Positions 1,865-27,861 of a DNA stretch of 44,844 bases are shown here, piece by piece. The position numbers and the translations under genes are program-made. The stretch's first letter is position 1. Every line of letters starts with the position of its first letter. Origin of the DNA: Candidatus Margulisiibacteriota bacterium (lineage in GTDB: Bacteria > Margulisbacteria > WOR-1 > O2-12-FULL-45-9); the NCBI GenBank assembly GCA_034723395.1, contig JAYEOW010000016.1, positions 1-44,844 on the forward strand, in the 5' to 3' direction. A model generated the notes under the pieces. The model did no database searches. It saw only the letters and a list, made by a program, of their open reading frames with translations, and was not told the origin of the DNA.

Positions 1865-1892
1865 ATATCGTGTTAAAACGCCAAAAACTTGT
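1865..1892 (-). promoter_or_regulatory. sigma28/FliA-like promoter 1 (FliK-like/FlhB-C pair)
   Basis: ACAAGTTT-N12-CACGATAT. Confidence 0.75.
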
Positions 1893-1893
1893 A

Positions 1894-2634
1894 CTATTTT
1901 TTCTCTTTTTTCTCTTCAGCAGCCGGCTTCTCCGCCTTAGCTGGAGCCGCTCCAGGGGCCGCCTTTTCTTTAACCTGCTCATCAGCAACCGCATCTTCAC
2001 CCTCTGCCGTCGCTGCCACAGCTTCTTCCGGTGTTGCGGGAGGAGGAGCTTCCTCTTCCTCTTTGGTCGGCGACGAAACCGAGGCCAGCATCTCGCCTTC
2101 GGAAGTTAAGATCTCAATTTTGTTTGATAGTTTGATATCTGAAACGTGTAAAGAATCATTAACCTTCAGCACAGTCACGTCCAATTCATATTTATCAGGG
2201 ATATCTCCCGGTAAACATTTTACTTCGATCTCCCTTAATCCATGGACCAAAACTCCGCCATCTTCTTTTACGCCGATCGGAACGCCTAATAATTCGACCG
2301 GGACTTCGGTCTTTATCGCTTCGTCCATAACGACATGCATAAAATCCAGGTGGATGATATCATCCGTCATCGGGTTCTGCTGAACGCTATGGGTAATTAC
2401 CGGAATATCTTTCTTTACGCCGTCATCCGAGATTTTTAGGGTAAAAATAAGGTTATGCCCAGCTTCGGATTTAATAATTTTTTTGATAAATTCCTTATTG
2501 TCTACCGAGATCGCCATCGCTTTAAATTTACGTCCATAGACAACCGCCGGGATCAGGCCCTGTCTTCTCGCGTTCTTAGCCTTTTTCCCCAGATCTTCCC
2601 TCTTACTTGCTTTTAATTCAACTTTAGCAACCAT
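1894..2634 (-). CDS. rplY: 50S ribosomal protein L25/CTC (long form)
   Basis: ARRQGLIPAVVYG, HLDF, VPVELLG.PIGVKEDGG, CLP.DIP, acidic tail; AAGGAG RBS. Confidence 0.96.
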   Translation of the reverse strand: MVAKVELKASKREDLGKKAKNARRQGLIPAVVYGRKFKAMAISVDNKEFIKKIIKSEAGHNLIFTLKISDDGVKKDIPVITHSVQQNPMTDDIIHLDFMHVVMDEAIKTEVPVELLGVPIGVKEDGGVLVHGLREIEVKCLPGDIPDKYELDVTVLKVNDSLHVSDIKLSNKIEILTSEGEMLASVSSPTKEEEEAPPPATPEEAVAATAEGEDAVADEQVKEKAAPGAAPAKAEKPAAEEKKEKK

Positions 2635-2673
2635 TTTTTCTCCTTTTAGGCCGTAGAAATAATATCATATTTA

Positions 2674-4470
2674 TTATTCTGACGCAACCCCGTAAGGGAC
2701 CCGGCGCTTCCCATGCAGGATATATTGCCCTTCGTACGGCTCGGGCGAATATACCTTTCTAAAACGATATTGCTTATACCACTTTAAAATATCCCTTGCC
2801 ACATAAGCTGAGGCCTTATCCCCGTGCTCGCCATGCGCCACAAAAACAGAAATCACAATTTCGGGATCATCATATGGCGCATAACAGATAAACCAGGCGT
2901 GCGCTTTACCCGGATTTTCGGCGGTCCCGGTCTTGCCCGCTGCCGGGAATCCAGGGATCCTGGCAGCAACTCCGGTCGCCCGATTTACTACTTGCCGGAG
3001 CATCGCCCTCATATATTCCAAGTTTTTTTCTGATATGGGGAGGCCTCCGATCACTTCGGTCTTGCCTTTATAAACTATTTGCCCCGCTTTATTCATAATT
3101 TCATCGACCACATAAGGTTTTACCCTTCTCCCGGTCGCGATGCCGGCATAGACCGAAGCCATCTGTAAAGGGGTGACCTGGACAAATCCCTGTCCGATCC
3201 CATAATTTATCGAATCACCATCATACCAGTTTTCCTTTAAATACTTTTTCTTCCATCGCCTGTCCGGGACATTCCCCCTCTTCTCTTGTGGGAGATCAAT
3301 TTTTGTTCGCTCGCCCAAACCAAATTTTTTAGCATACTTGGCAATAAGGTCAGGCCCCAGCCTTTTACCAAGTTCATAAAATACGATATCGCACGACCAG
3401 ACCAGCCCTTCTAATGTATCTACCGGACCATGCCCCCCCTCTAACCAACACTTTGCGATCCGGTTGTTGACCCGGTAATACCCCTTGCAATCGAACACCT
3501 CGGTTGTCGTCGTCTTCCCCTCTTCCAGCGCGGCGGCCAGAGTAATTACCTTAAAGATAGAACCGGGAGGATAGTGCGCCAGCGGACGGTTCATGAACGG
3601 GTGATTCTTTTTTCCCAGCTCTTTCCATTTCCAGTTTATCAGCGGATCGGTAAACACATTCGGATCATAATTCGGGTAACTGGCCAGAGCGAGGATCTCT
3701 CCCGACTTTACATCCATAACCACAACCGCCCCTTCCCGGCCACCCAACGCCTTCTCAACCGCCTGCTGTAATTTCAAGTCCAAAGTCAGCTTCATGTCTC
3801 CGCCCGGGACCGGCTCCAAAGATTCGAGCACCCGGGTCGGCGAACCGTAAACGTCGACTTCAATTTTTTTCCCGCCATCTTTACCGCGAACATATTTATC
3901 ATATATCTTTTCTACCCCGTCCTTCCCGATAACATCTCCCAACCGATATCCTTTTCGCCTCGATTTAACCAATTCTTCCGCCTCTATCTCTCCCACATGC
4001 CCCAAAATATGCGACGCTAAATTATTATATTTATAAAGCCTTACCGGACGGCTGGTCACAACTACCCCGGCAAGTTCGCGCTTTCGCTCTTCGATGCGGA
4101 TTGCGGTCGTCAAAGATATATTGTCTTTTACAATGATAGGCTCCGCCGCGGTAACCTTGGTATCGATCTTTTCGCCCAGTATTTTACCAAGCTCATTTAA
4201 TATTTTTTCCCTCTCATTTTTACTTTTAGCATTTAAAACATAAGGGAGCACCCTGACCGAAAAGATCGGGCGGCTTTCGACCATCACCCTGCCGAAACGG
4301 TCATATATAACCCCGCGCGGGGCGGGTTCGGCAACTGTTTTCGCCGCATTCTCGATCGCCAGTTTAATATATTTCCCTCTTTCAGTGATCTGAAGATGGA
4401 CCAGGCGCAGAAAAAGCAATGCAAAAATGGCCATGATCGCCCCAAACAGCACTTGATTCTTATTAAGCAT
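2674..4470 (-). CDS. mrdA: Penicillin-binding protein 2
   Basis: N-terminal TM, APRG.IYDR, SxxK (GSIFK), SCD, KTGT; follows mreBCD. Confidence 0.95.
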   Translation of the reverse strand: MLNKNQVLFGAIMAIFALLFLRLVHLQITERGKYIKLAIENAAKTVAEPAPRGVIYDRFGRVMVESRPIFSVRVLPYVLNAKSKNEREKILNELGKILGEKIDTKVTAAEPIIVKDNISLTTAIRIEERKRELAGVVVTSRPVRLYKYNNLASHILGHVGEIEAEELVKSRRKGYRLGDVIGKDGVEKIYDKYVRGKDGGKKIEVDVYGSPTRVLESLEPVPGGDMKLTLDLKLQQAVEKALGGREGAVVVMDVKSGEILALASYPNYDPNVFTDPLINWKWKELGKKNHPFMNRPLAHYPPGSIFKVITLAAALEEGKTTTTEVFDCKGYYRVNNRIAKCWLEGGHGPVDTLEGLVWSCDIVFYELGKRLGPDLIAKYAKKFGLGERTKIDLPQEKRGNVPDRRWKKKYLKENWYDGDSINYGIGQGFVQVTPLQMASVYAGIATGRRVKPYVVDEIMNKAGQIVYKGKTEVIGGLPISEKNLEYMRAMLRQVVNRATGVAARIPGFPAAGKTGTAENPGKAHAWFICYAPYDDPEIVISVFVAHGEHGDKASAYVARDILKWYKQYRFRKVYSPEPYEGQYILHGKRRVPYGVASE

Positions 4471-4936
4471 GGCTGATCCTTTTTACGATCGGAAAGAGGA
4501 CCGGGACAAACAGCATGTTATATACCGTCGCTAAAATTGCGTTGGTGATAATAAAATAACAATCAAACCGGGCCCTCCCGAAAAAATAAAGAATTCCTAT
4601 TTCAAAAAGCCTGGAGAGCGGAGTAAAAACAACCACCAGGACCACAGAAAAAACAAATTCGTTCCCCATAAAGTTTTCTTTTAGCAAGTTCACGACCAAA
4701 CTAACCAATACTTTTACGATCGTATTGAAGTAAACACCAAATGAAAGAAGATCTTGTAATAATCCGGCCCCTGCCGAAAATATCGCTGACCTTTGCTGGC
4801 TATTAAAAACCGAATAAATGATCACCGAAACCAATATAAGATCGGGCACTACCCCAAACAGGTTCAAACGCGCAAAAATGACCGCCTGAAACATTAAGAC
4901 AACCAAGATATATATACTAGCGAGTAAAAAGGTCAT
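4463..4936 (-). CDS. mreD: Rod shape-determining protein MreD
   Basis: Hydrophobic, PDL.L and GLLQDL motifs, between mreC and mrdA. Confidence 0.9.
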   Translation of the reverse strand: MTFLLASIYILVVLMFQAVIFARLNLFGVVPDLILVSVIIYSVFNSQQRSAIFSAGAGLLQDLLSFGVYFNTIVKVLVSLVVNLLKENFMGNEFVFSVVLVVVFTPLSRLFEIGILYFFGRARFDCYFIITNAILATVYNMLFVPVLFPIVKRISHA

Positions 4937-4937
4937 T

Positions 4938-7572: not shown

Positions 7573-8445
7573 ATGATTATCGGGATTGATTTAGGCGGAA
7601 CCAAGATCGCAGGAGTGCTGGCCACCCCCTCTGGAAAAATTCTTATGGACGTAAACATCCCCACCGAAGCAAAAAAAGGGAAAAAAACAGTTATAAATAA
7701 CATTAAAAAAGCGATCGATATGCTGATCAGCAGTAAAAAGGTTAAAATTAAGGCTATCGGGATCGGCGCTCCAGGTCCGATTTTATATGAAAAAGGTATT
7801 GTAGTTGAGGCCCCCAACCTTCCGGGATGGAAAAAGGTCCGCCTGAAAGAGATCTTTGAAAAAGAGTATAACGTCCCCGTATTTGTCGATAATGACGCAA
7901 ATTGCGCGGCACTTGCCGAAGCGTGGTTTGGCGCCGGTAAATTCGCGAAGCACTTTTTATATATGACCGTTTCAACAGGCATCGGCGGTGGGATTATTAT
8001 TAACAAAAAAATATACCGCGGCGCTACCGGTACCGCGGGTGAATTTGGCCACATGACAATTAACATTGACGGCCCAAGATGCGGCTGCGGACACTACGGT
8101 CATCTGGAAGCGCATGCTTCCGGGACCGCGATGAAGAAGAAGGTTGGAATGGAAGCGGTTTCGGTCGAATTGGCCGCCCGCCAGGGAGACAAGAAGGCAT
8201 TAAAAGCGATCGAAGAGACCGCGCATTACCTGGCGATCGGTATCGCCAATCTGGTAAACATTTTTAATCCGGAGATGGTTGTGATCGGCGGCGGGCTTTC
8301 GAATATGCGGGAACTTTTATTCAAACCGGTCCGGAGAGATTTTAAAAAATATGCGCTAACCCTTCCCGCAAAATCGGTTAAGATCGTAAAAGCAAAACTA
8401 GGAAATCAAGCCGGCGTGCTCGGCGCAGCTGCCTTATGTCTATAG
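7573..8445 (+). CDS. ROK-family sugar kinase (glucokinase-like)
   Basis: IGIDLGGT, NDANCAALAE, GIGGG, GEFGH, CGCG..GHLE. Confidence 0.93.
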   Translation: MIIGIDLGGTKIAGVLATPSGKILMDVNIPTEAKKGKKTVINNIKKAIDMLISSKKVKIKAIGIGAPGPILYEKGIVVEAPNLPGWKKVRLKEIFEKEYNVPVFVDNDANCAALAEAWFGAGKFAKHFLYMTVSTGIGGGIIINKKIYRGATGTAGEFGHMTINIDGPRCGCGHYGHLEAHASGTAMKKKVGMEAVSVELAARQGDKKALKAIEETAHYLAIGIANLVNIFNPEMVVIGGGLSNMRELLFKPVRRDFKKYALTLPAKSVKIVKAKLGNQAGVLGAAALCL

Positions 8446-8446
8446 C

Positions 8447-8861
8447 CCTCACCCCTGCACCCCTCTCCATTCCCTCGACTTCGCTCGGGATGGAGAGGGG
8501 AATCAGTACCATAAATGAAAAGTAATCGCCAAATAATTTACGGCGCTAGATCCTCAAGAAAAGATTCAACGGAAGCAGAAGAATTACTTTGGCAGTCGAT
8601 TGATCGTTTTATTCTTGACTTTTATTGCCCCAGGAAAAAACTAGCTATAGAAATCGATGGAGGAATACACATTAATCGAAAAGAATATGATAGAATTAGA
8701 CAAGAAATTATCGAAAGTAAAGGAATCAAATTTCTAAGATTTAAAAACAAAGATATAATGAAAAAGATTGATTTCGTATTAAAAACAATTAAAAGAAAAT
8801 TAGTCCCCTCTCCACGAAGTGGAGAGGGGTGCCCCGAGCTTGTCGAGGGGCGGGGTGAGGA
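8447..8861. mobile_element. DUF559-carrying mini-element with palindromic inverted ends and 11-bp target-site duplication
   Basis: Starts CCTCACCCC and ends GGGGTGAGG(A). Each end has a CCCCTCTCCA..TGGAGAGGGG hairpin. Flanked by the direct repeat ATGTCTATAGC (8436-8446 and 8862-8872). Confidence 0.75.
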
Positions 8862-8871
8862 ATGTCTATAG
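8515..8871 (+). CDS. DUF559 (Vsr/PD-(D/E)XK-like) endonuclease-domain protein, apparently internally deleted
   Basis: T.AE..LW, FILDFYC..KKLAIEIDG..H, G.KFLRF.N present; the usual LR...G.KFRRQ segment is missing. Confidence 0.8.
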   Translation: MKSNRQIIYGARSSRKDSTEAEELLWQSIDRFILDFYCPRKKLAIEIDGGIHINRKEYDRIRQEIIESKGIKFLRFKNKDIMKKIDFVLKTIKRKLVPSPRSGEGCPELVEGRGEECL

Positions 8872-9488
8872 CAATCATCGATTACGGCAGCGGCAACCTC
8901 CGAAGTGTCCAAAAAGCCTTCCAAAAGTTGGGTTTTCCCGCGGAAGTAAGTAAAGACAAATCATTCATCCGATCCGCAAAGGGGATCGTCCTTCCTGGAG
9001 TCGGGTCATTTGATGCCGCGCTAAAAGAGCTCCGTGATAACGGCCTGGAAGGGGCGATCGAAGAAGGGATCGCGCTAAATAAACCTTTCTTAGGTATCTG
9101 TCTAGGGCTTCAGCATCTATTCGAAAGCTCCGAAGAGGGGAAAGAGAAAGGACTGGGAATATTAAAAGGCGAAGTAAGAAAATTTAATTTCAAAGGGACC
9201 CCCTGGAAAAACCAGAGCGTTCCGCATATGGGATGGAATAGATTATTGATCAAGCACCATTCCCCTATCCTGGAAGGGATCGAGGAAGGAAGCATGGTCT
9301 ATTTCGCGCACTCTTACCATGTGATCCCCAAAGATGAGATGTCAGTTGCCACCAGGACCGATTATGGTATAGAATTTGTGTCATCGGTGTGGAAAGACAA
9401 TCTTTTTGGGATCCAGTTCCATCCGGAGAAGAGCGGAGAGGTCGGATTAAAGATCGTCAGGAACTTTGGGAAATTATGTTTGAAATAA
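8862..9488 (+). CDS. hisH: Imidazole glycerol phosphate synthase glutaminase subunit
   Basis: IIDYG.GNL.SV, LPGVG, GICLG.Q, PHMGWN, QFHPEKS. Confidence 0.97.
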   Translation: MSIAIIDYGSGNLRSVQKAFQKLGFPAEVSKDKSFIRSAKGIVLPGVGSFDAALKELRDNGLEGAIEEGIALNKPFLGICLGLQHLFESSEEGKEKGLGILKGEVRKFNFKGTPWKNQSVPHMGWNRLLIKHHSPILEGIEEGSMVYFAHSYHVIPKDEMSVATRTDYGIEFVSSVWKDNLFGIQFHPEKSGEVGLKIVRNFGKLCLK

Positions 9489-10180
9489 TACCAGCAGTTG
9501 ATATATTAAATGGAAAATGCGTCCGGCTTAAACAAGGCCGCTACGATGCGGAGACGGTCTACGACGAAGATCCGGTAGAGGTCGCTAAACGCTGGGAATC
9601 ACAAGGGGCAAAACGCCTGCACATTATCGATCTTGACGGAGCGCGGACCGGAATACCTAAAAACATTGAGATTATTAAATCTATCATTAAAGAAACCAAT
9701 ATCCCCATTCAGGCCGGCGGCGGCATCCGAAACATAGATGTAATCAAAGAATTGATCGACTTCGGCATCGACCGCGTTATTTTAGGGACCACTGCCGTAA
9801 ACAATCCGAACATGCTTTCAAAATTCTGTGAAGAATTCGACGGGCAGATCGCAGTCGCGATCGACGCCAAGGAAGGGATGGCCGCTACCGAGGGATGGAC
9901 CAAGGTTTCTAAAAAAGATACTCTAACCCTGGCCAAAGAAGCGATCGGCCTGGGCGTAAAAAGATTTATCTATACCGATATCAGCCGGGATGGAATGCTG
10001 ACCGGCCCGAATTACAAGGGGATCAAAGAATTTATCGGCCAGGTGAGCGTTCCGGTGATTGCCTCGGGCGGAGCTTCTTCGAAAGAAGATATCGAAAAAT
10101 TAAGAGAGACCGGAGCCGAAGGTTGTGTCGTAGGAAAAGCGCTGTATGAAGGAAAAATTAGTTTAGAAGAGATCCTCTGA
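9476..10180 (+). CDS. hisA: ProFAR isomerase
   Basis: IIPAVDI..GKCVRL.QG, GGGIR, YTDISRDG, ASGG. Start moved to the ATG at 9476 (MFEIIP), overlapping the hisH end; the ORF-track start at 9389 over-extends. Confidence 0.95.
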   Translation: MFEIIPAVDILNGKCVRLKQGRYDAETVYDEDPVEVAKRWESQGAKRLHIIDLDGARTGIPKNIEIIKSIIKETNIPIQAGGGIRNIDVIKELIDFGIDRVILGTTAVNNPNMLSKFCEEFDGQIAVAIDAKEGMAATEGWTKVSKKDTLTLAKEAIGLGVKRFIYTDISRDGMLTGPNYKGIKEFIGQVSVPVIASGGASSKEDIEKLRETGAEGCVVGKALYEGKISLEEIL

Positions 10181-10181
10181 G

Positions 10182-11174
10182 ATGGATAAGAAAAAATTAT
10201 TAGAAGAACTGAATAAGCTAGAAGCCGATCAAATTGCCGAACTTATCCCATTAATTATTCGCAAATGCTTCCCAAAACCAGAAAACTGGAAAGACTATTA
10301 TTATAAATATTTTCCTTATTGGGAAAAAAACGGTTTTCACGTAACACTAAACCATTTTTATTCTCCCCTCCCTGAAGTATATAAATTAAATAACGAGCTC
10401 TGGGATAAGATCCCCCCTACCCCAAACCTCGATTTTAAGGAAAAAGACCAATTGGCATTGCTTAATGAGTTCAGTAAATTCCAAAAGGAATATAATGATA
10501 TACCAATTAAAAAAACAGCTACCGCCAACCAGTATTACCTGCTCAACGGTAAATACGATGGTATCGATGGGTATTCACTTTACTGCATGATCCGGCACTT
10601 TAAACCAAAAAGGATAATCGAGATCGGATCGGGGTTTTCCACCCTCCTAACGGCACAAGCATGCCTAAAAAACAAAGAGGAGAATGGAGAGGACACTAAA
10701 CTTATTGCGATTGAGCCTTTCCCGAGTAACTTTTTAAAAGCCGGCTTCCCCGGCTTATCAGAACTTATTACAAAAAAAATACAAGATGCTGATCTTAAGT
10801 TATTTGACCAGCTTCAAGCCGGCGACTTTCTATTTATCGATTCTTCCCATGTGCTAAAGATTGATAGCGATGTTAAGCTTGAATATACAAATATTCTGCC
10901 GAGATTAAAAAAGGATGTCATTGTCCATGTCCATGACATATTTCTGCCGGCGGAATACCCCAAAGAATTCATTTTTGGCCTGCTTTTTCTGTTCAATGAA
11001 CAATACCTGGTCCAATCAATTCTTGCTAATAGTGATAACTATGAAATTCTGTGGGCGGGGCATTATATGTACTTAAATCATTTTAATAAGCTAATGAAAG
11101 TCTTTCCTAATTATAAGAAGATAAAAAAGTCCCCTACCCACTTTAGCAGCTGCTGGATAAAGAAAATAAAATAG
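10182..11174 (+). CDS. Class I SAM-dependent methyltransferase (Methyltransf_24-like)
   Basis: IIEIGSGFST, FIDSSH, VHVHDIF.P.EYP; visibly AT-rich. Confidence 0.8.
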   Translation: MDKKKLLEELNKLEADQIAELIPLIIRKCFPKPENWKDYYYKYFPYWEKNGFHVTLNHFYSPLPEVYKLNNELWDKIPPTPNLDFKEKDQLALLNEFSKFQKEYNDIPIKKTATANQYYLLNGKYDGIDGYSLYCMIRHFKPKRIIEIGSGFSTLLTAQACLKNKEENGEDTKLIAIEPFPSNFLKAGFPGLSELITKKIQDADLKLFDQLQAGDFLFIDSSHVLKIDSDVKLEYTNILPRLKKDVIVHVHDIFLPAEYPKEFIFGLLFLFNEQYLVQSILANSDNYEILWAGHYMYLNHFNKLMKVFPNYKKIKKSPTHFSSCWIKKIK

Positions 11175-12321: not shown

Positions 12322-12348
12322 AACAATTCCCTCCTTTTAATAACATTA

Positions 12349-18083: not shown

Positions 18084-18097
18084 AACTTAGTTATTGA

Positions 18098-18424: not shown

Positions 18425-18457
18425 AATAATTTCCTCCTAATTAATTTTTTAACCTTG

Positions 18458-18513
18458 TTTAAGGGACCGCTGGTCCCCTAAATAAGGCAGGCCCCGGTCT
18501 CCCGGGGCCTTCC
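18458..18513 (-). other. Two tandem GC-rich RNA hairpins without a U-tract
   Basis: Minus strand AGGAAGGCCCCGG..CCGGGGCCTGCCT, then TTTAGGGGACC-AGC-GGTCCCTTAAA. Confidence 0.75.
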
Positions 18514-18518
18514 TATGG

Positions 18519-18887: not shown

Positions 18888-18915
18888 TTATCGGGTCGAG
18901 CGGGCAAAAACTTGC
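18888..18915 (-). promoter_or_regulatory. sigma28/FliA-like promoter 3
   Basis: GCAAGTTT-N12-CCCGATAA. Confidence 0.8.
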
Positions 18916-18916: not shown

Positions 18917-19150
18917 TCAGACAACCATGTTTTGCTGCATCCCCGGGATGTTGCCGGTCGAGATCTGGGCGATCATGTTTTTAACGTCCTGAGGATCGAT
19001 CTTTAATTCGGGGCTCCCGCCAAGGTTCTTCGCGTCGAGCGCGCTTTTAACCCTGTCTCCCAGCTGGCCAAGTAAATTATTCCCTATCCCTTCCCGGGAT
19101 TCTTTTACCTGGCTGGTCAATTGTGAATTTATGTTAAGTCCTGTTTTCAT
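18917..19150 (-). CDS. Small hypothetical protein (77 aa)
   Basis: ATGA overlap with the upstream gene; fills the gap to promoter 3 exactly. Confidence 0.7.
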   Translation of the reverse strand: MKTGLNINSQLTSQVKESREGIGNNLLGQLGDRVKSALDAKNLGGSPELKIDPQDVKNMIAQISTGNIPGMQQNMVV

Positions 19151-19440
19151 TTGTTTAGATTATCGAACAACTGTTTGATCTTGCCGATCGATTCTTCGAT
19201 AATTTCTTCTTCGGCTTCGAGGAAGCTAAAAGGATCGCTGTGCAGCTCTTCTTTATTGCGGGTAAAGGCCAATGACGCGGCATTGCTCTCTTTTGCGATC
19301 TGCATTTTGGCCGCTTTTGCCACGCCGGCGATACTCTCGGCAAAGTTAGCCCCGTTTGTATTCTGGACGCTATTTACCGACTTTGCGGTCGATTTAACAT
19401 TTATTTCGTTATTATACGGTAATATACTTCCGATATTCAT
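19147..19440 (-). CDS. Small hypothetical protein (97 aa)
   Basis: Starts 1 nt after the giant gene's stop; MNIGSI N/S-rich start, NFAESI, acidic C-terminal helix. Confidence 0.75.
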   Translation of the reverse strand: MNIGSILPYNNEINVKSTAKSVNSVQNTNGANFAESIAGVAKAAKMQIAKESNAASLAFTRNKEELHSDPFSFLEAEEEIIEESIGKIKQLFDNLNK

Positions 19441-19441
19441 T

Positions 19442-22400
19442 TTAGGCTACCCCCGCTCCGCTCGTTTTAATACTGTTCTCTTCGCGAAGCGCATCTTCAT
19501 ATTGCTGCCGATAACTCTTCTTTACCTGGCTGCGGGCAATACCAGCCAATACACTAGGCGCGCGGTCTACCAATCCCGGCTTAGGCTGCTCTACTTCCCT
19601 TACGACATTCTCCATATCTTTTTGAACACGCTCTCTTCCCGCCCTAACAAACTTCTGAATAAAGGCAAGGATACTTGAACCAGGAGCTTCCTGGGACGCC
19701 TGAGCCCCCGCTTTTCTGGACGCCTCTCTAACCTCCGCTTTCTTAATATCTCTTTCTAATGATGTAATATCTTTCTGTAATCCCTGCAAATTAGCTCTTA
19801 AACCCTTAACCTCAGTTTCTACCCCTTTAATCTTTTGTTCAGCCAGTTTAATTCGATCGGTTATTTTCTGCTTAGCATGGATTAATAGTTTCTCTTGAGA
19901 TTCCACTGATTTTAACTGCACTTTTAACTTAGCAAGTAATACTTTATCCTGGGCAGTTAGTTTCTTCTTGGTTTGCAGAGCAAATATTTTCTTGCCGATT
20001 TCTGTCCTTTCACGCCGGAGCTGGCCGATCTGGACATCAGCCTGTTTCTGCCATGCCGCAACCTCAGCTCTGATCTTTGGCAGCTGAGTTTTTAAAGCGT
20101 TGAGCTCTTTTATTTTAACCGATAATTGTTTCTGGACCGCATCCCTCTTTTGTTTAAGCTGCACTAACTGCGCCTTAAGCTGCAGTGAGCTGGCCTTTGG
20201 AGCCGCCAGCCTTCTTTGCGGAACATATTTTTTAACTGCCACTGTCTTAACTTTTGAGCTTGAAATATGATTTGCAATCTGGTTTGCCTGCTTAAGCAGC
20301 GCCTGGGTCCTGGTATGAGTAGTTGTCCGGCTGCTCTGGTTTACCCGGTTCACATTAGTTGGAGTAGAAACCTTATTCGCCGCCGGGGCATTTAGGGCCG
20401 CGGCAGCCTGGGCGACCATCGGCGCTAATTTGGGGTCAAGCATCTCAACCTGTTTTAATATTTTAAGCGCGCGTTCTTTGGCAACCTTGCCTCCTCCCAA
20501 CTGATCTATTCCAGATTTGATCAAGGCTTTATTCGGCTGTTTAACTATGTACCAAGCAACATCACGGGCAGAATTTTTCGGATTATTTGCCATTGATTGG
20601 ACTTTTCTATTAAACGCGCTGATGTTGGTCTTCTCCGGAGTCTTTCTCAACCTTAAATAAGTGTCCGCGGAATTTTTCGCTTCGGACATAATGAAATTTG
20701 AGGTCTTTTCGCTCCGGGCAGCCACGTAACTAGCCTTCATATTCTCCTGGTCGATAAATGAGAGCGCTACTTGTGCTGCCTCGATATCAGCATCCATATT
20801 GTCCATTGAATTAAAATAATCCGAAGATTTCTGGGCAGACCGCTCTTTAGGGGCATCTGCTTTTTTAGCATTCTTGTTGTGTACCCCATCATAGGTAAGG
20901 TCAACCGTAATATCGATTAACCGGCTGGCTAGATTTAAGGCCGCGATAACCCGATTGAACTTACCAATATCCTTGCCAATCGTGGTCATATTCTTACCTT
21001 TAAAAAACGATCTTTTATCTTTTACCCAGAAGCTTTTCCCCTTGGTCAATATCTTGTGCTCCGCCTTCATCCGGGCATTATAGGCGCTTAATCCAATCGT
21101 AGCTAAGCTTACTGCCGTCCTAATAGATGATAAAATAACGCCGCTGATTGCCCCTTTGATCTGATTACGCCGTTCAATTATACTGTCTAGCGCGCCCTTT
21201 AACGAATCGAGCATCGAAAGGGCGACCGATTTATGGTCGTTAAGCGAATCTTTACCAAAGTCTTTGCGCGGCATGCTCTTACCCGAAAAGCGCGCTTTTG
21301 CCTGCGACTTGGCATCGGTAAGGATACTGCGGGCAACGGCAATCGCTTCTCTAACATTATATAAAGCCTTCATCCGGCCCGAGAGTTTCGAAGCTTCCGG
21401 GCTAACCATCATAAAGGTGCTGTCGATGCTCGTCATCAGCGAAGAGTTCATCTCCAGCATGATCTCGTATTCCATCTTATCCATCCTGGAATCAATACCT
21501 GCTTCGTTATTAACTCTGCGCCCGGTTTTATCTACGGTAGTTTTTGCTTCATACCCTTTTAAACTACCGTAATCATTTTTACCTAAGGTAATCGACGCGG
21601 TAATCAACGATGCTAATGAGTTGGTCAGTGACATTAATCCGCTGGTTAGTCCCATACATGCCTTATGAAATGTGATTAAACCTGAAGTTGTAGAATTAAG
21701 CGTGGCTGCTCCGCCAACCCCACCAACTATAGCAAACACCGCGTTAACCCCAAACGTAGCCGCGGCCATTTTCATCGCTTTTTCCTTGTCGCGGGCGCGG
21801 TTCATAACCTTTACTTTTTCCTGCAATGCCCTGACGATATTGCTGACCACCTTCATCGCGGTGCTGAAAGAGGCCTGGTTAGTAGATTTTGAAAGTTCGC
21901 CTTGAGTGCTTAAAGTCTGGCCGGTAAACTCCTGTTTTACGATCATCCGGAGCTCAGAAGATAGCGCTCTCGCCTTAGCCAGCGCCTCTTTTGCGGCATA
22001 GATCCTGCCGATCCGCGAATAGACGCTAGTTACCAGAGAGAAATTGACTCCGTAGTAACCGTCGCCGCTCGAAACGATCCCATGCTCCATTAACTCCTGG
22101 TAAGCTTTAAGTTCTATCGCGTCTAACTTTGCTTCGACCGATTTTGCCCCGCGAGAGCGGAGAATATTATCCAGATCTTCGCTTACAACATTAAATGCCC
22201 CTTTGATCTTGTTGTGGTCCCTGACCGCAGTGTACAATTGAAATGCAGCAGAAGATAATGCAGAAACAATCCCCATATACACTCCCCATAAAGCGGGACT
22301 GATTATATATCCAAGAACGGCGCCCAAAGCAGCGCCGGCAACCGAAATTGCCGCCCCTCTCATCGCATCTTTTGCCCCGATGTCGGCTTGCAGCTTCATA

Positions 22401-24958
22401 TTTTTAGCGATCACTACTTCCTGATGATGGAACTTGATCGCGGAGAGGAGCGTCTGCCGCTGCATCATAATATTTTCAACCGCGTTCTGCAGGAGCGCCT
22501 CCCCGGAATTAGCAGAAGAACTTCCGGTAAATTCAGAATCGGCGACCCTTCTAAGGTCTCGGCTGTTCTTGATCAGTGAGAAGATCGACCGGACCGCGTT
22601 ATCCATCATCTTCAGCTTCATCTCATAGGCGGCAAACTGCTTTGTATTTAAGAAATAGAAATCATCACCGGTCTGGCCAAGCATCCCGTTATTGTAGGCG
22701 GCCGCTCTTACCGTTGCCTTCTGCTCCATCTCGATCTCATCAAGCACATCTAAAATAGCATCCCCATGGCCTTTCTTCTCAGTGATCGGTTCGTTGTAAT
22801 GCGCTTCGATCGGATTATATTCCTTAATCCTCGAAGCTTCATAAGTCCCGATCGCGTTCATCAATCCGCCGGCAAGACCGCAAACCGCGGCAACCAGCAT
22901 TGCCATTGCCGGAGCTGTCGCACCGAGCGAGTAGATCGAAACTGCTACAGCGGCGATCGTTAAGACAACCGCGGCCAAGCGGAAAGGGCGCGCCCTTAAA
23001 AGCTGCTGGTAGTTCTTTAGTAATTGAACATTGGTATTATGGAGCTTGCTCTTTAACATCAGCTGAGAAGCGGTAGCGTCAAATACCTGGGTAGCGTGGC
23101 CAAGCGCGGATTCGGCGGACTGCATCAGCATTTCGGCGTCATTCTTGATCCCCGAAAGGCCGGTAAATTTCTCCCGGGCAATATTCCTCATATCCCTGCC
23201 GAGCATTTTGATCGACAGGTAAGAACGAATGCCATTTTGTGAAGCAACCAATCCACCGCGGTAATCCGCGAGCATCCCCTCAATATCAAGGGTCATATAT
23301 TCCGCACCTTCAGCAAAGTCGTACTCACTGCTATCCGCCCATTTCACAAAACCATATGCCATCCCGACGACCGGAATAAAAGATAAGACCGGCCCAAGAA
23401 CATATTGCCACTTGCCCGTCTTCTCAAGGAGTTCATTTAACTTATTGACACCCTTCTCAGTGCCTTTCGAAAGTTCTTCCAGGCCACGGCCAGCCCAGTA
23501 TCCGATGCTGTACTTACGGCCGGTTTTCGCGTACCATTCTCTCGAATCATTGTTCCACTGGCAAATCCACCAGACAACCACATCACCGACCTCCTGCATA
23601 AGCCGCCCGATCTTTTTCATCAAATCCAGCGCGATGCGCGGCAAGGCAGCCATGAAATCAGCCGCCACACTGCCAATTTTGAATATTTGCGCTAATCCCC
23701 ATAATACCCCGGTCTTCTCCATCGCCTTACAAACCGCGTTATTCATGCCGCTTATGGATGACCAGATCCCTTTCCAATCAAACTTTCCCAGGGATTTCCA
23801 GAACTTCTTGAAATTCTTCCGGAAGCCCTTTGGATTGTCCTTCTCGATCTTATCTAGATTCTTCTGGACCTCAGCCAGCCCCTTATCGACTTCCGCATTC
23901 ATCTCATCGATCTTAGCGCTGAATGCCTTTAAGCTCTTGACCATTCCCAGAGCCATCATGTTCATATCGCCGCTGGCAAAACACTGGGTGATCAGGGCAA
24001 TTACCGAGTTAATTACCCCCTGCATTGCAGCTAGGGTTTTCTGGGTCGTTTTATAATATTTCTCCGACTCCTTAAGCGCCATCCTGGTCTTCTTCATGTC
24101 GTTTTTGCCGCCGGTAAAGAAGTTCCCAACCTTATCGTACCACTTGTTGTACTTATTCTTGATCTTCGCCATTTTATCGTTGTATATCTTTAAATTATCG
24201 GTATTTATCTTCTCGAACAGCTTAGCGACCGCTACTTGAGACATCTTTTGAAGGATCCTGATCTTGCGGGCGAAGGTCTCTTTGTAGGAGTATTTATCAT
24301 CCTGGATCGGCTCGCCGGTAAACGCCTCTTCAACCAGCTTCTTGGTCTCGAACTGATTTCCAATCGCAATTAAAAGTGCGGCTAATATATTAGCGCGGGT
24401 TATGATATATTTTGTCCATTCTTCCAGCTTCTCAGGATCCGGCTCCCAGTAACCATCTTCATTCTGGACCATATAATCTTCTTCGGTAAATTCGAGCACT
24501 TTGTCAGTGAGGTCGCCGTCCAGGTTATCCGCGGTATCGATCGCCCCGCCCATTCCACTGGTTTCGTCACCGCTATCTGCCGGTGAGGTTCCATTGGTAC
24601 CGTTAGTTCCGCTGGCGCCATCGGCAGGATCGCTCGGGCTTGGATTTGGCGGTGGCGGAGGCGGAGGAGCCTCTTTGGTCTTTCCTCCGTTAACTAAATC
24701 ATGGTATTCGGAAGAGTTTTCGATATATTGTTCTTCAACCGCTTCCTGAACAGTTTTGGACTGCAAAGCCGCATTGGCCTGGGTGGAATTAAGAGGGGGT
24801 CCCGAGATCTGTGCTTTATCAGTTGCTTCCGCAATCGCTACTTCGAGGGTATCCGAAACAAGAAAATTAGGCTGCGCTCCGGCGCCCGCAAGCCGTTCCT
24901 CGGCTTCAAGCATAGCTCTTTGCAGCTCTATTACATTATTTACGTTTGGAGGATTCAT
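19442..24958 (-). CDS. 1838-aa helical repeat protein with multiple hydrophobic hairpins (translocator-like) and C-terminal coiled coil
   Basis: F(T/S)G-anchored repeats at aa 213, 598, 810, 1011 and 1224; G/A-rich hydrophobic pairs; poly-Pro N-region; no signal peptide seen. Confidence 0.8.
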   Translation of the reverse strand: MNPPNVNNVIELQRAMLEAEERLAGAGAQPNFLVSDTLEVAIAEATDKAQISGPPLNSTQANAALQSKTVQEAVEEQYIENSSEYHDLVNGGKTKEAPPPPPPPNPSPSDPADGASGTNGTNGTSPADSGDETSGMGGAIDTADNLDGDLTDKVLEFTEEDYMVQNEDGYWEPDPEKLEEWTKYIITRANILAALLIAIGNQFETKKLVEEAFTGEPIQDDKYSYKETFARKIRILQKMSQVAVAKLFEKINTDNLKIYNDKMAKIKNKYNKWYDKVGNFFTGGKNDMKKTRMALKESEKYYKTTQKTLAAMQGVINSVIALITQCFASGDMNMMALGMVKSLKAFSAKIDEMNAEVDKGLAEVQKNLDKIEKDNPKGFRKNFKKFWKSLGKFDWKGIWSSISGMNNAVCKAMEKTGVLWGLAQIFKIGSVAADFMAALPRIALDLMKKIGRLMQEVGDVVVWWICQWNNDSREWYAKTGRKYSIGYWAGRGLEELSKGTEKGVNKLNELLEKTGKWQYVLGPVLSFIPVVGMAYGFVKWADSSEYDFAEGAEYMTLDIEGMLADYRGGLVASQNGIRSYLSIKMLGRDMRNIAREKFTGLSGIKNDAEMLMQSAESALGHATQVFDATASQLMLKSKLHNTNVQLLKNYQQLLRARPFRLAAVVLTIAAVAVSIYSLGATAPAMAMLVAAVCGLAGGLMNAIGTYEASRIKEYNPIEAHYNEPITEKKGHGDAILDVLDEIEMEQKATVRAAAYNNGMLGQTGDDFYFLNTKQFAAYEMKLKMMDNAVRSIFSLIKNSRDLRRVADSEFTGSSSANSGEALLQNAVENIMMQRQTLLSAIKFHHQEVVIAKNMKLQADIGAKDAMRGAAISVAGAALGAVLGYIISPALWGVYMGIVSALSSAAFQLYTAVRDHNKIKGAFNVVSEDLDNILRSRGAKSVEAKLDAIELKAYQELMEHGIVSSGDGYYGVNFSLVTSVYSRIGRIYAAKEALAKARALSSELRMIVKQEFTGQTLSTQGELSKSTNQASFSTAMKVVSNIVRALQEKVKVMNRARDKEKAMKMAAATFGVNAVFAIVGGVGGAATLNSTTSGLITFHKACMGLTSGLMSLTNSLASLITASITLGKNDYGSLKGYEAKTTVDKTGRRVNNEAGIDSRMDKMEYEIMLEMNSSLMTSIDSTFMMVSPEASKLSGRMKALYNVREAIAVARSILTDAKSQAKARFSGKSMPRKDFGKDSLNDHKSVALSMLDSLKGALDSIIERRNQIKGAISGVILSSIRTAVSLATIGLSAYNARMKAEHKILTKGKSFWVKDKRSFFKGKNMTTIGKDIGKFNRVIAALNLASRLIDITVDLTYDGVHNKNAKKADAPKERSAQKSSDYFNSMDNMDADIEAAQVALSFIDQENMKASYVAARSEKTSNFIMSEAKNSADTYLRLRKTPEKTNISAFNRKVQSMANNPKNSARDVAWYIVKQPNKALIKSGIDQLGGGKVAKERALKILKQVEMLDPKLAPMVAQAAAALNAPAANKVSTPTNVNRVNQSSRTTTHTRTQALLKQANQIANHISSSKVKTVAVKKYVPQRRLAAPKASSLQLKAQLVQLKQKRDAVQKQLSVKIKELNALKTQLPKIRAEVAAWQKQADVQIGQLRRERTEIGKKIFALQTKKKLTAQDKVLLAKLKVQLKSVESQEKLLIHAKQKITDRIKLAEQKIKGVETEVKGLRANLQGLQKDITSLERDIKKAEVREASRKAGAQASQEAPGSSILAFIQKFVRAGRERVQKDMENVVREVEQPKPGLVDRAPSVLAGIARSQVKKSYRQQYEDALREENSIKTSGAGVA

Positions 24959-24967
24959 CTATAATAT

Positions 24968-24995
24968 ATATCGTGGTTTGAAGGGTAAAACTTGC
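24968..24995 (-). promoter_or_regulatory. sigma28/FliA-like promoter 4
   Basis: GCAAGTTT-N12-CACGATAT, 9 nt before the ATG at 24958. Confidence 0.8.
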
Positions 24996-25009: not shown

Positions 25010-26152
25010 TTATCTACGGGTATTAACCGACGGTTTTGGCGGTGCTGGAGGGACTCGGACGGGAATAGCTGGACCTCCGGCAGGCTGTGTTTTAGTTTGC
25101 ACCTTCATCGCATCCCGATTTTGCTTGATAAATGTCCTTAATTGGGTCGCGCTTGCGCCGCTTTTATACTCTGATACCAGTTTTTTAAACTTAGGACTCC
25201 CCGGGTTAAAATCGTCCATTATCTCAGCGTATCTCTCTCCAACCTTCCATTGCAATCCATTGATTATCTTTACGGTATTACTAAAAGCCTCAAAATCGGC
25301 CTTTGTAACCCCTTTTTTATCCCCTTTTTCTCCTAAGACAAACTTAGCAAACAACGTTCTTGTAAAGACGCGCGAAAGGAGCGGATCCTTGTGCAGGCCC
25401 TTAAGAACATCAACCGAGATGCTTTTCTTTAACGCGTGCAGGTAGAGCTTATTAAACAGCGCGGCTCCCATTAACCGGTTGAATTTCTTCTGCAATGCCG
25501 GGGTTAATGAATCATAACGCTCATGTAACTTACGTTCCAAATCCCGCCCTTTAAGCTTCTCTTTAAAGCCGCGATCTTTCAAATAGGCGAGAATTCGCTT
25601 GGCTTCACCTTTGTGCCAATGGAAAATTGCTTTCCTATTCCTATCCCTAGCCACAAATCCACGCATCTGGCGCGGAGCCGGGGTGATCGTTATCTCGGTA
25701 CAACCTCTGAAATATTCAAAATTGGTATTGGTAGCAATATAGAACTCTTCATAATGTTCAAAAGCCGAGAGCAGCCCGCGCTCACTATAGATCGGCGATC
25801 TACCGGAAAAGGCCTTCCATGCCGCATCGGTAATATTGGTATCAAAAGCTTTTTCAAAATTTTTTCTGGTAAAAGGTTTTCCATCTCGTTTACATCTCTC
25901 AAAAGCATCTTTTAATCGTGCCACTATCCCCATTCGGTCAAGGTCTTTTCCGCCGGTAACTTTAGAGTAAATCTCCGCAATTCTGGCCAACCGATCACTA
26001 AAAGATGTTCGTGTATTAGTAGGAAAAGCGGCAGTGTTTATTGGCGGCGGGGTTGCCCGTTTTGCCTGCGGCTCGACCGCAGGGGCCGGCTTCCGGCGCG
26101 GGGCCGGCGGCGGGATCTGTATTCTAGGTCTGGCTGCGCCTACTGCAATCAT
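25010..26152 (-). CDS. Hypothetical basic protein with Pro-rich termini (380 aa)
   Basis: Abuts the upstream stop, AGGTGG RBS; no recognised domain. Confidence 0.8.
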   Translation of the reverse strand: MIAVGAARPRIQIPPPAPRRKPAPAVEPQAKRATPPPINTAAFPTNTRTSFSDRLARIAEIYSKVTGGKDLDRMGIVARLKDAFERCKRDGKPFTRKNFEKAFDTNITDAAWKAFSGRSPIYSERGLLSAFEHYEEFYIATNTNFEYFRGCTEITITPAPRQMRGFVARDRNRKAIFHWHKGEAKRILAYLKDRGFKEKLKGRDLERKLHERYDSLTPALQKKFNRLMGAALFNKLYLHALKKSISVDVLKGLHKDPLLSRVFTRTLFAKFVLGEKGDKKGVTKADFEAFSNTVKIINGLQWKVGERYAEIMDDFNPGSPKFKKLVSEYKSGASATQLRTFIKQNRDAMKVQTKTQPAGGPAIPVRVPPAPPKPSVNTRR

Positions 26153-26380
26153 TTACTTTAAACCACCTTTTTTTATTAGGTCATCAAGCTCTTTCTGCTT
26201 GGCCTTCATCTTGCCCATTACTTCGTTAAGATTGCTCTCTGCAAGCTTAACTTCTTTATCTGCCTTAGCTTTATAGATATAAGCCTTAATCAAATTTAAG
26301 AGTGAAGAGACCAAAACCACGATCGCCACTCCTAAAAAGAACGATGTCCAATTAAAATTTTGTGTTATAAATTCAAACAT
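26153..26380 (-). CDS. Small single-TM coiled-coil protein (75 aa)
   Basis: WTSFFLGVAIVVLVSSLLNLI followed by a heptad-rich tail. Confidence 0.75.
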   Translation of the reverse strand: MFEFITQNFNWTSFFLGVAIVVLVSSLLNLIKAYIYKAKADKEVKLAESNLNEVMGKMKAKQKELDDLIKKGGLK

Positions 26381-26391
26381 AATTAAGTTGT

Positions 26392-26763
26392 TTACCTCAC
26401 TACTTTAGTTGGGACCGCTTTCCTCGACTGGGTTGCAGGCGACGGATTCTTAGTCGTCGCCAGACGTCCGGTATAAGTACCTCTCCGTTCGCCAAACAGC
26501 CGATTTAAAAGCAGACCAAAAACTGATCGATCCTCACCCTGAGACTGGCCGCGGCTGTTTTCACCGGTCGCTTTATCTCCGCCTTCTTGATAAATATCCA
26601 CGCCCTTCCCCTCCTCAACACAGTCGGAACCTCCGATTTTACTGAATTCTTGTGGAACCTCTCCTGATTTCCTTTTGAAATCCTGTCCATGTTTTCTGTT
26701 CGTGATTCTGCCGGGAAGATTAGCTACTACCGAGCCGGCGCTTCTAACATAATTAACTGCCAT
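26392..26763 (-). CDS. Hypothetical low-complexity protein (123 aa)
   Basis: First gene after promoter 5, GAGGTG RBS. Confidence 0.65.
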   Translation of the reverse strand: MAVNYVRSAGSVVANLPGRITNRKHGQDFKRKSGEVPQEFSKIGGSDCVEEGKGVDIYQEGGDKATGENSRGQSQGEDRSVFGLLLNRLFGERRGTYTGRLATTKNPSPATQSRKAVPTKVVR

Positions 26764-26783: not shown

Positions 26784-26811
26784 CTATCGTAACAACTTGC
26801 AAAAAACTTGC
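26784..26811 (-). promoter_or_regulatory. sigma28/FliA-like promoter 5
   Basis: GCAAGTTT-N12-TACGATAG, with a second GCAAGTT inside the spacer. Confidence 0.75.
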
Positions 26812-26815: not shown

Positions 26816-26857
26816 AAAAAAAAGAGGGGTGCGCCATCTGCAAATAGACACCCCCCG
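26816..26857 (-). terminator. Intrinsic terminator after the PorV-like gene
   Basis: GGGGTG...CACCCC stem followed by TC and T8 on the minus strand. Confidence 0.65.
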
Positions 26858-26869
26858 TTATTCAAACAC

Positions 26870-26904
26870 TAAATTTCAAATGACAAATTTCAAATGTCAA
26901 ATGA
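26870..26904. repeat. Five tandem heptamers (CAAATTT/CAAATGA/CAAATGT)
   Basis: taaattt caaatga caaattt caaatgt caaatga. Confidence 0.85.
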
Positions 26905-26916
26905 AGGTCATATTAT

Positions 26917-27801
26917 TTATATTTTATTTATTTCTGCGACTCTACGATCGGGTTGTTTGTCGAACGCGAGAGAGATAGATATATAGTGTATCGGGCTTTC
27001 GGAACCGCGGTAAGCATAATTTACTCCTACTCCATTGCGGCTTACGCCTACTCCAGCTGTATTGTATACTCCATCTTTACCGGCCCGAAGGGCGACCAGC
27101 GAGATCGGCTTCCATTCGCAGCCTACCCTCCCATCACTATCCGCGCTTACTATAATAGATTCGAGAAGTTTAGCTGAAGCGCCAAGAGAGATGCTATATT
27201 CGTCTTCACTGGCACTGTCCATAGCGCTAAAAAAGTTCTTAATATTAATACCCAGAGAGATATCCTCTCCCGGCTTTAACATTGCCGCCAGATCGGCATT
27301 GATAATAGAACCATTATTATCAGATAGCCCTTTTGCTCTGGTAATCAGATAATTTGATACTTTTAAACTTCCGCCCAGGGATAATTTACCCATAAACTTT
27401 GGAACTACCGAAAAGCGGTTGAATTCGCGGGCATATGAGAGGATTAACGCCTGGTTTTGGGCTGCAACCGGGGCCTCGCCTTGGTCGTTGATCGCGGCCG
27501 CGGAGAGGCCGTCAATTGGATAAGCAGAGCTGATATAGCCGATCCCAAAGTTACCAACCGGGGTCTCTTCGACCCCGCCTATAATAGTATAGCTCCTATC
27601 AGAAATTTTGTTTGAAACGACTGCGTGTTCACCGTGGAGATAGCCGATCCCGGCGGGGTTCTCAAAAATAGCATTGGCATCGTCAGCGATAGCCACAAAA
27701 GCTCCCCCCATCCCCATCGGCCTCGCCCCCATATTATCCGAAGCAAAAGAGACGGATGCAACTAGTAAGACTGCAGACAGCAAGAGAATGTACTTCTTCA
27801 T
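26917..27801 (-). CDS. PorV/PorQ (UPF0164, FadL-like) outer-membrane beta-barrel
   Basis: Signal peptide, GARPMGMGGAFVAIADDANAIFENPAG signature, alternating beta-strands. Confidence 0.8.
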   Translation of the reverse strand: MKKYILLLSAVLLVASVSFASDNMGARPMGMGGAFVAIADDANAIFENPAGIGYLHGEHAVVSNKISDRSYTIIGGVEETPVGNFGIGYISSAYPIDGLSAAAINDQGEAPVAAQNQALILSYAREFNRFSVVPKFMGKLSLGGSLKVSNYLITRAKGLSDNNGSIINADLAAMLKPGEDISLGINIKNFFSAMDSASEDEYSISLGASAKLLESIIVSADSDGRVGCEWKPISLVALRAGKDGVYNTAGVGVSRNGVGVNYAYRGSESPIHYISISLAFDKQPDRRVAEINKI

Positions 27802-27833
27802 TTGACCCTCCTATTAAACATCCTACACCTTTA

Positions 27834-27861
27834 TTATCGTAGCTTGGGGGATAAAACTTGC
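27834..27861 (-). promoter_or_regulatory. sigma28/FliA-like promoter 6
   Basis: GCAAGTTT-N12-TACGATAA. Confidence 0.78.

Follow-up and report, generated by a model that had tools for sequence, protein, structure and literature searches.

The 44,844-nucleotide (nt) stretch of DNA analyzed here, hereafter the window, is one contig (C16, JAYEOW010000016.1) of the 1.68-Mb assembly of a Candidatus Margulisiibacteriota bacterium, which comprises 55 contigs and is 97% complete. The organism belongs to an uncultured class of Margulisbacteria that some sources call Saganbacteria. Six minus-strand sites in the window share a two-box motif with a fixed 12-nt spacer, and these sites, together with their counterparts elsewhere in the genome, are very probably promoters of sigma-28 type, recognized by a FliA-like sigma factor specific to the class, a pairing that draws on sequence comparison and on the joint distribution of motif and factor. 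The motif occurs at one rigid spacing, lies predominantly between genes, points into the gene that follows, and is kept before orthologous genes in relatives whose proteins have diverged.

Six Promoter Sites in the Window

Exact matches to CAAGTTT-N14-CGATA occur six times on the minus strand of the window (1866-1891, 15949-15974, 18889-18914, 24969-24994, 26785-26810, and 27835-27860), and each falls inside one of the six 28-nt intervals in which a preliminary description of the sequence had placed a variant sigma-28 promoter. In octamer notation, each site consists of (G/A)CAAGTTT, a 12-nt spacer, and nnCGATAn; the spacer opens with T in all six, as that description had claimed and as can be read directly from the site sequences. 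Its view of the motif as FliA-like, with an altered -35 start and a spacer longer by one, likewise holds, in that GC replaces TA and the spacer measures 12 rather than 11 nt. Allowing one mismatch adds one further match in the window, on the plus strand at 13737-13762 and within a gene, which is treated as chance; in 100 shuffled controls searched with up to one mismatch, the mean was 0.29 matches and the maximum 3.

The six sites, all on the minus strand, are numbered here in coordinate order. P1 (1865-1892; ACAAGTTT-N12-CACGATAT; 36.4 bits on the position weight matrix introduced below) lies 1 nt past the stop codon of the L25 gene, P2 (15948-15975; GCAAGTTT-N12-CCCGATAT; 40.1 bits) lies 8 nt past that of a gene for a protein of 699 amino acids (aa), and P3 (18888-18915; GCAAGTTT-N12-CCCGATAA) lies 1 nt past that of a 77-aa open reading frame (ORF). 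P4 (24968-24995; GCAAGTTT-N12-CACGATAT; 41.4 bits) follows the stop codon of a 380-aa gene by 14 nt, P5 (26784-26811; GCAAGTTT-N12-TACGATAG) stands 105 nt past the nearest upstream stop, and P6 (27834-27861; GCAAGTTT-N12-TACGATAA) follows that of a nucleotidyl-transferase gene by 9 nt. The measured gaps thus agree with the earlier statement that five of the six sites start within 15 nt of an upstream stop, with the qualification that P3 qualifies only if the 77-aa ORF (18917-19150), which overlaps the stop of the preceding gene by 4 nt, is real. In the other direction, the -10 octamers of P1 to P6 are separated from the next start codon by 85, 24, 42, 9, 20, and 32 nt, respectively.

The short gap at P4, where the -10 octamer stands only 9 nt from the ATG of an 1838-aa gene (24958-24995), has parallels in relatives, namely 9 nt before the giant gene of genome G145 and 6 nt before a 79-aa gene of G016 (loci L062:12538-12575 and L065:5377-5411). 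Messages with so short a gap between the -10 octamer and the start codon would be leaderless or nearly so. The start codon of the 1838-aa gene is supported because a paralogous protein of 3665 aa also begins MNPP. At P1, the leader of the downstream FliK-like gene (1780-1864) contains a near-perfect 8-bp palindrome directly past the -10 box, as well as a run of ten G immediately 5' of the start codon, which could be a slippage-prone tract.

A Single Promoter Class in the Genome

Throughout the genome, AAGTTT-N14-CGATA occurs in 25 copies, compared with 9, 4, 1, 3, 3, and 4 copies when the boxes are set at N11, N12, N13, N15, N16, and N17, respectively; the spacer is 12 nt in all motif copies, and the canonical 11-nt spacing has one occurrence. 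Among the 23 copies of CAAGTTT type, the first position of the -35 box is G in 18, A in 4, and T in 1, while the C at the second position is set by the search pattern, two further AAGTTT copies having T or A there. Positions 3-8 of this box (AAGTTT) agree with the Escherichia coli consensus TAAAGTTT, of which the full octamer is not matched, and the GC that precedes CGATA in the canonical -10 box is not conserved in the class motif. Beyond the boxes, conservation is seen at an A three bases ahead of the GC, at the T that follows AAGTTT, and in a patch rich in C near the start of the spacer.

A weight matrix made from 22 sites and applied at a threshold of 20 bits retrieves 24 sites from the genome and none from three shuffled genomes; the two sites that it adds, on contigs C37 and C38, are weak. 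Of these 24, 18 are situated wholly outside every ORF of at least 120 aa, though such ORFs cover 92% of the genome. A co-oriented ORF begins within 400 nt downstream of 23 of the 24 sites, the exception being at a contig end. The proposal that the sites define a regulon is thereby sustained and enlarged, as the genome scan gives about 22-24 members of fixed spacing, nearly all of them intergenic and pointing into a gene.

Two other patterns were considered and rejected: AAGTTT-N11-CGATA as a second promoter class, its nine copies having no further shared consensus, and a looser GCAA-N18-CGATA pattern without GTTT, whose 31 copies fall inside the 16-36 range of other spacings. Since the N11 copies do not have the extended consensus and the looser pattern sits at background, we therefore see one promoter class in the genome.

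The same features bear on whether the motif is a promoter at all. Were it instead the operator of a regulator or a piece of a dispersed repeat, the abutment of several sites on an upstream stop codon could be accommodated; a repeat, however, is ruled out by conservation that is confined to two boxes while the 12-nt spacer and the flanks vary, and an asymmetric element with one rigid spacing, oriented toward a downstream gene in 23 of 24 cases, is untypical of a dimeric operator. These possibilities are accordingly judged most improbable, and the sites are treated below as promoters.

Conservation Across the Class and Phylum

All 31 genomes of the same order contain CAAGTTT-N14-CGATA, in 6-23 copies per genome against 0-2 for the reversed control. 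The pattern is likewise present in 65 of 65 genomes of the class (3-24 copies), compared with 0-9 copies, and in most cases 0-4, among the phylum's remaining 81 genomes.

Three class genomes that belong to other families (G016, G116, and G145) have their motif sites grouped in a syntenic island, in which the position of the promoter is identical before orthologs of the giant gene behind P4, of the PorV-like gene behind P6, and of the operon that begins with a 176-aa gene behind P2. A promoter also precedes syntenic small-gene operons that match the 108-aa and 123-aa operons behind P3 and P5, the first genes of which have no detectable sequence match. Site by site, P2 is kept before the orthologous operon in G016, P3 before the orthologous operons in all three genomes, P4 before the giant-gene orthologs in G116 and G145, P5 before the syntenic small gene in G016 and G145, and P6 before its ortholog in G016. 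At these conserved promoters the spacers, the flanks, and the encoded proteins (21-57% identity) have diverged.

Outside the class, the flagellin upstream regions of flagellated relatives display the canonical form: in 8 of 14, TAAA-N15-nCCGAnAA can be discerned by eye at canonical spacing. Five flagellin upstream regions from such relatives (L038, L041, L043, L046, and L047) have no obvious sigma-28 box and share GG(T/C)CCGC-N-TGTCGGG about 120-150 nt before the start codon.

The Sigma Factor

The preliminary description implied that a sigma factor of the FliA/SigD/WhiG type should be encoded by the genome, and such a factor was indeed found. The best FliA/WhiG match is a 246-aa protein encoded on contig C55, which is the only alternative sigma factor co-distributed with the motif across the class. 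Among NCBIfam models it scores 135.6 bits with FliA_WhiG, 118.4 with WhiG, and 112.8 with FliA, compared with 79.9 for SigB/F/G and 71.2 for cyanobacterial RpoD; its closest solved relatives are WhiG-type (6pfv and 6pfj, also 7lq4), followed by Aquifex FliA (1rp3) and E. coli FliA (6pmi), with RpoD behind. The gene is embedded among those of the flagellar basal body, in the order FlgF-FlgG-FlgA-FlgH-FlgI-(100 aa)-sigma-FlgB-FlgC-FliE-FliF, followed by a 154-aa FliG stub, FliI, and FliJ. Orthologs (57-81% identity) are present in 58 of the 65 class genomes, and the best match outside the class does not exceed 38% identity. Inspection of region 4.2, which the earlier description had singled out, disclosed a recognition helix with class-invariant substitutions. 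All 11 class orthologs compared have LSRPKVCR there, and all six FliA-like proteins sampled beyond the class, five of them encoded by flagellin-bearing genomes, have SKSKV(S/N)R.

The genome contains three further sigma-domain genes, which encode RpoD, a 222-aa factor, and a 681-aa protein, and the placement of the 222-aa gene between two motif sites on contig C31 raises the prospect that the promoters are read by a factor other than the FliA-like one, be it the housekeeping sigma aided by an activator or another alternative sigma. The sub-threshold score of the FliA-like protein, given below, would favor the same view. The motif is class-wide, however, whereas none of the other 64 class genomes contains an ortholog of the 222-aa factor, and the 681-aa protein is found in 3 of the 146 genomes of the phylum. 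In addition, a CGATA -10 core combined with an AAGTTT -35 core is the signature of sigma-28 as set out in PMC2859248, unlike TTGACA/TATAAT. Recognition by another factor is consequently considered very unlikely, and the 246-aa protein is retained as the candidate reader of the motif.

Two of these additional factors merit description. The 222-aa sigma (C31:15519-20211; L011:7520-12212) has an RpoH/RpoS-like region 2, and its gene follows a motif-driven 952-aa gene and precedes another motif site, a placement that suggests a possible sigma cascade. The 681-aa protein (C33:3579-5621; L003:91-2136) combines a C-terminal sigma-70-type domain with a 420-aa N-terminal extension of unknown kind.

Several results weigh against the assignment of the motif to the FliA-like sigma and should be set beside it. 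The 135.6 bits of the 246-aa protein fall under the curated FliA_WhiG (TIGR02479) cut-off of 189.6 bits, and, since the matrix was built from 22 sites that it then also scores, the bit values of those sites are circular. Seven of the 65 class genomes (completeness 51-95%) contain the motif with no matched sigma ortholog, and families f48-f50, outside the class, contain 1-9 motif copies with no close sigma ortholog. Orthologs of the FliK-like protein occur in 59 of the 65 class genomes; of the 30 loci examined, 28 had upstream sequence, and the strict motif was present in only 10 of these, a recognizable one (a matrix score of at least 13 within about 160 nt) being present in 19. Finally, no match to PF04316, the FlgM-type anti-sigma family, was found in the genome. 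PF04316 was unmatched as well among 19 regulon-associated proteins of 57-380 aa, most of them below 180 aa, although proteins this small evolve too fast for profiles.

Two small ORFs were evaluated as anti-sigma candidates and rejected. The case for the 77-aa ORF as FlgM-like rested on a motif for which Pfam lent no support, and the sole relative that was found does not preserve the glycine presumed to be essential to it. The 100-aa ORF that overlaps the start of the sigma gene (C55:4258-4560, L035) contains an EFxAIFYKExLKQ block conserved in nine relatives, which we take to resemble the FlgJ rod-binding domain; no Pfam model detects a match to this ORF.

Genes Behind the Promoters

The products of the regulon are dominated by proteins, about 20 in number and up to 3665 aa long, that profile databases do not recognize. 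No Pfam family was detected at E <=0.01 for 19 of 21 first-gene products, and of the 54 proteins encoded downstream of the sites in G016, G116, and G145, 43 match no Pfam family at E <=0.0001. Many regulon products are exceptionally large: of the genome's five largest ORFs, three belong to the regulon, and outside the window its promoters precede proteins of 3665, 1911, 1152, 952, and 768 aa along with several small ORFs. Most have polar N-termini and no signal peptide, and cysteine accounts for 0.24% of residues in the regulon as opposed to 0.88% in the proteome (rank test, p = 8e-6; 22 proteins of at least 100 aa).

The only flagellar genes in the regulon are those behind P1 (154-1779, minus strand), which encode a FliK-like protein (499-1779; 426 aa) and a paralog of the FlhB C-terminal domain (154-492; 112 aa). 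Pfam scores for this operon are 24.2 bits for Flg_hook, under the cut-off, and 74 bits for Bac_export_2; the FlhB-like paralog also reaches 90.8 bits with the NCBIfam model flhB_rel, under its cut-off of 117. The late flagellar genes, i.e., those for flagellin, hook-associated proteins, stator, and chemotaxis, are not driven by the motif. The regulon is not a motility regulon, a point that the initial reading of the sequence had missed.

The P2 operon (11932-15923, minus strand) encodes proteins of 176 and 136 aa, a 348-aa glycosyltransferase with GT2 and TPR domains (13952-14998, minus strand), a 533-aa all-helical orphan, and a 129-aa coiled coil. The 533-aa family has 48 members, all from Margulisbacteria or Saganbacteria and all labelled hypothetical, and its structure model is all-helical at modest confidence, with a predicted local distance difference test score (pLDDT) of 64. 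This protein was rejected as a divergent flagellin: a PDB profile search gave E >=0.08, Foldseek returned no match at E <=0.001, and the best VIA-align hit (Z 7.6) involved helical hairpins. Beside the island, on the plus strand of the window (7573-11174), are genes for a ROK kinase, a DUF559 nuclease-like protein, a HisH/HisF-like pair, and a methyltransferase; together with a glycosyltransferase, such a set recalls the sugar-modification islands that adjoin flagellin genes.

P3 precedes an operon (15984-18845, minus strand) that consists of a 108-aa gene, a second 108-aa gene, and the gene for the 699-aa orphan. A strong terminator-like hairpin between the first two genes (18489-18510, minus strand) has nine pairs, eight of them G-C; the first 108-aa product may therefore be produced at a higher level than the others. 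The 699-aa family has 22 members, and its structure model is confident (pLDDT 82; predicted template modelling score 0.79). Foldseek found no fold match to it at E <=0.001, and the best VIA-align hit (Z 5.9) involved a long C-terminal helix only.

The giant gene, which encodes 1838 aa (19442-24958, minus strand), opens the P4 operon (18917-24958, minus strand) and is followed by ORFs of 97 and 77 aa. Its product belongs to no Pfam or NCBIfam family, and its best score in a protein atlas (0.80) is at chance level; its orthologs measure 2620 and 1525 aa and share 22-23% identity. Examined by eye, the protein has a proline-rich disordered N-terminus, a lysine-rich coiled-coil end, and between them at least four modules, in each of which an (E/R)F(T/S)G motif is combined with long hydrophobic segments that resemble hairpins. 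The 2620-aa ortholog (G116, L061:4305-12167) contains, near its N-terminus, a transglutaminase-like core of cysteine-protease fold (Pfam, E = 1e-6), a match that the window copy does not share.

P5 drives an operon (25010-26763, minus strand) of a 123-aa gene, a 75-aa single-pass membrane ORF, and a 380-aa gene, with no Pfam family detected. P6 precedes a single gene (26917-27801, minus strand) for a 294-aa PorV/PorQ-like outer-membrane barrel with a signal peptide; the product has a hydrophobic N-terminus and scores 46.4 bits with the NCBIfam model PorV_fam, under the cut-off of 90, and its G016 ortholog, behind the same promoter, is 39% identical. The same window encodes, on the plus strand (32557-35136), an 859-aa protein with immunoglobulin-like domains and a weak C-terminal CHU_C domain, which is of type IX secretion type.

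A Flagellar Base With No Detectable Filament or Motor

The genome encodes FlhA, FlhB, FliP, FliR, FliO, FliI, FliJ, FliF, FliE, FlgB, FlgC, FlgF, FlgG, FlgH, FlgI, FlgA, FliM, and FliN, as well as a 271-aa FlgE/G-like protein and two FliK-like proteins, so that export gate, ATPase, MS ring, rod, and L and P rings are kept. The presence of the FlgH and FlgI rings and of flagellar rod proteins suggests a flagellar lineage, not an injectisome one.

Other parts were sought with no success. Within the 97%-complete genome there is no match to Flagellin_N, Flagellin_C, or FliD_C, no profile match to a chemoreceptor or the MotB plug, and no fourth axial protein of Flg_bbr_C type that could be FlgK. 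The only match to the FliG C-domain in the genome scores 16.8 bits, under the cut-off, the FliG stub having N and M domains only, and the sole MotA_ExbB protein is an ExbB that adjoins ExbD and TonB.

The pattern is class-wide. Flagellin is detected in 15 of the 146 genomes of the phylum, comprising 1 of 65 in the class, a weak match, versus 14 of 81 in other classes, while the MotB plug is detected in 59, comprising 4 of 65 versus 55 of 81. Full-size FliG (131-150 bits) is confined to 13 genomes of families f44-f47, all of them flagellin-bearing. FliG_C is matched in 4 of the 65 class genomes, and 61 of the 65 have neither FliG_C nor MotB_plug. Since the same profiles work elsewhere in the phylum, the class appears to keep a flagellar base with no detectable filament, cap, or torque parts. 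In the four class genomes with FliG_C, the match lies in an ORF of about 500 aa, which in three of them stands beside a MotB-like gene; several flagellin-negative Margulisbacteria have such a FliG_C-like ORF adjoining a MotB-plug gene (e.g., G125:C24:12943-14193, G131:C20:16535-17770, and G070:C21:93228-94540), and this pair looks like a separate, non-flagellar, stator-linked system.

It might be objected that an ordinary motility regulon is present, whose filament, hook-associated, cap, and motor proteins have diverged beyond the reach of the profiles. The operon sizes do recall the flgM-flgN-flgK and fliC-fliS sets, the P2 operon includes a glycosyltransferase-TPR gene, and the 533-aa protein is all-helical. 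The yield of the same profiles in the other classes nevertheless speaks against such divergence, as do the truncation of FliG and the missing chemoreceptors in this genome. The models of the 533-aa and 699-aa proteins, moreover, match no flagellar axial protein, although the all-helical, low-confidence model of the former deserves little weight here. An ordinary motility regulon is thus regarded as unlikely, and a sigma-28 regulon with other duties is the reading carried forward.

Proposed Mechanism and Significance

In the proposed mechanism, the 246-aa FliA-like sigma, encoded in the basal-body operon, would read the six window sites and the rest of the approximately 22 promoters. The promoter of the class has changed in its -35 box (GCAAGTTTT in place of TAAAGTTT), in its spacer (12 in place of 11 nt), and in that the GC before CGATA has ceased to be conserved, and class-invariant substitutions that match this change are found in the recognition helix of region 4.2 of the sigma. 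According to PMC2859248, replacing T by C at position 1 of the -35 box of the E. coli aer promoter cuts activity from 223 to 23 units, about tenfold; a -35 box that starts with GC would therefore be expected to need a changed sigma. As to timing, since the sigma gene is transcribed together with basal-body genes, the promoters probably act late in a hierarchy of flagellar type, as its last tier. That tier would have no motility role and would instead supply a second FliK/FlhB-like pair, a PorV-like barrel, and many signal-less orphans.

A broader reading can be offered tentatively, as one with somewhat less than an even chance of being right. The flagellum of the class may be a non-rotating, filament-less type III export machine, the sigma-28 late tier of which has been replaced wholesale by giant, cysteine-poor, signal-less orphans, driven from about 20 promoters through a sigma/promoter code that co-evolved and serving as cargo or as an external structure, and by a second ruler/switch pair (the FliK-like and FlhB-C-like proteins). 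If true, a flagellum would here have become a secretion device for a second time, separately from the injectisome and with the regulatory hierarchy intact; the origin of the injectisome from flagella is treated in PMC3459982.

The system would offer a clean natural case of a sigma factor and its promoter changing together, as two -35 bases, the spacer, and the recognition helix differ from the canonical form, and flagellated sister lineages with that form provide a built-in control. It also gives a computable list of the genes predicted to be switched on by a motor-less, filament-less, flagellum-derived apparatus in an uncultured class, and in each genome it marks about 20-40 proteins of unknown function as belonging together functionally. 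The purpose of the retained basal bodies and the route from flagellum to secretion device become testable as a result.

Comparison With Known Systems

Among titles and abstracts retrieved for Margulisbacteria or Saganbacteria with flagellar terms, none concerned this apparatus or promoter. The FliA class 3 promoters of E. coli and Salmonella have the consensus TAAAGTTT-n11-GCCGATAA, as stated in PMC2859248. The class promoters resemble them in having two boxes, an AAGTTT -35 core, a CGATA -10 core, a rigid spacing, and a sigma encoded among flagellar genes. They differ in that the -35 box starts with GC (or AC) rather than TA, the spacer is 12 rather than 11 nt, and the GC before CGATA is unconserved, whereas a T after AAGTTT and a C-rich spacer patch are conserved; their targets, furthermore, include no flagellin, stator, or chemotaxis genes.

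Retention of sigma-28 with no flagellum, and its use for non-motility genes, is documented in Chlamydia trachomatis, for which PMC12282069 found only two targets, hctB and tsp. The present case differs from that one in its approximately 22 promoters, as opposed to two targets, and in the near-complete flagellar basal body that accompanies them. A further member of the FliA family re-used outside motility is WhiG of Streptomyces, which controls sporulation genes and is held by the anti-sigma factor RsiG with cyclic di-GMP; WhiG-type proteins are also the closest solved relatives of the class sigma by sequence. In Campylobacter jejuni, sigma-28-dependent non-flagellar proteins (the Feds, FspA, and CiaI) are exported through the flagellum, and the signal-less sigma-28 products described here may similarly be exported through the flagellar gate. 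Unlike Campylobacter, which has a working, motile flagellum, the class is missing filament and motor, and its candidate cargo includes proteins of 700-3665 aa.

Buchnera aphidicola lacks flagellin and motor genes yet retains basal bodies together with the genes for type III export, for which a role in protein export has been proposed (PMC8109811). Whereas Buchnera is a reduced endosymbiont, a dedicated sigma and approximately 22 promoters are found here across a whole free-living class. To our knowledge, no large sigma-28 regulon of orphan proteins exists in Buchnera. The use of sigma-28 outside motility and the existence of filament-less basal bodies were already known, each from other bacteria; more unusual are the regulon and the apparatus that stand behind the promoter described here.

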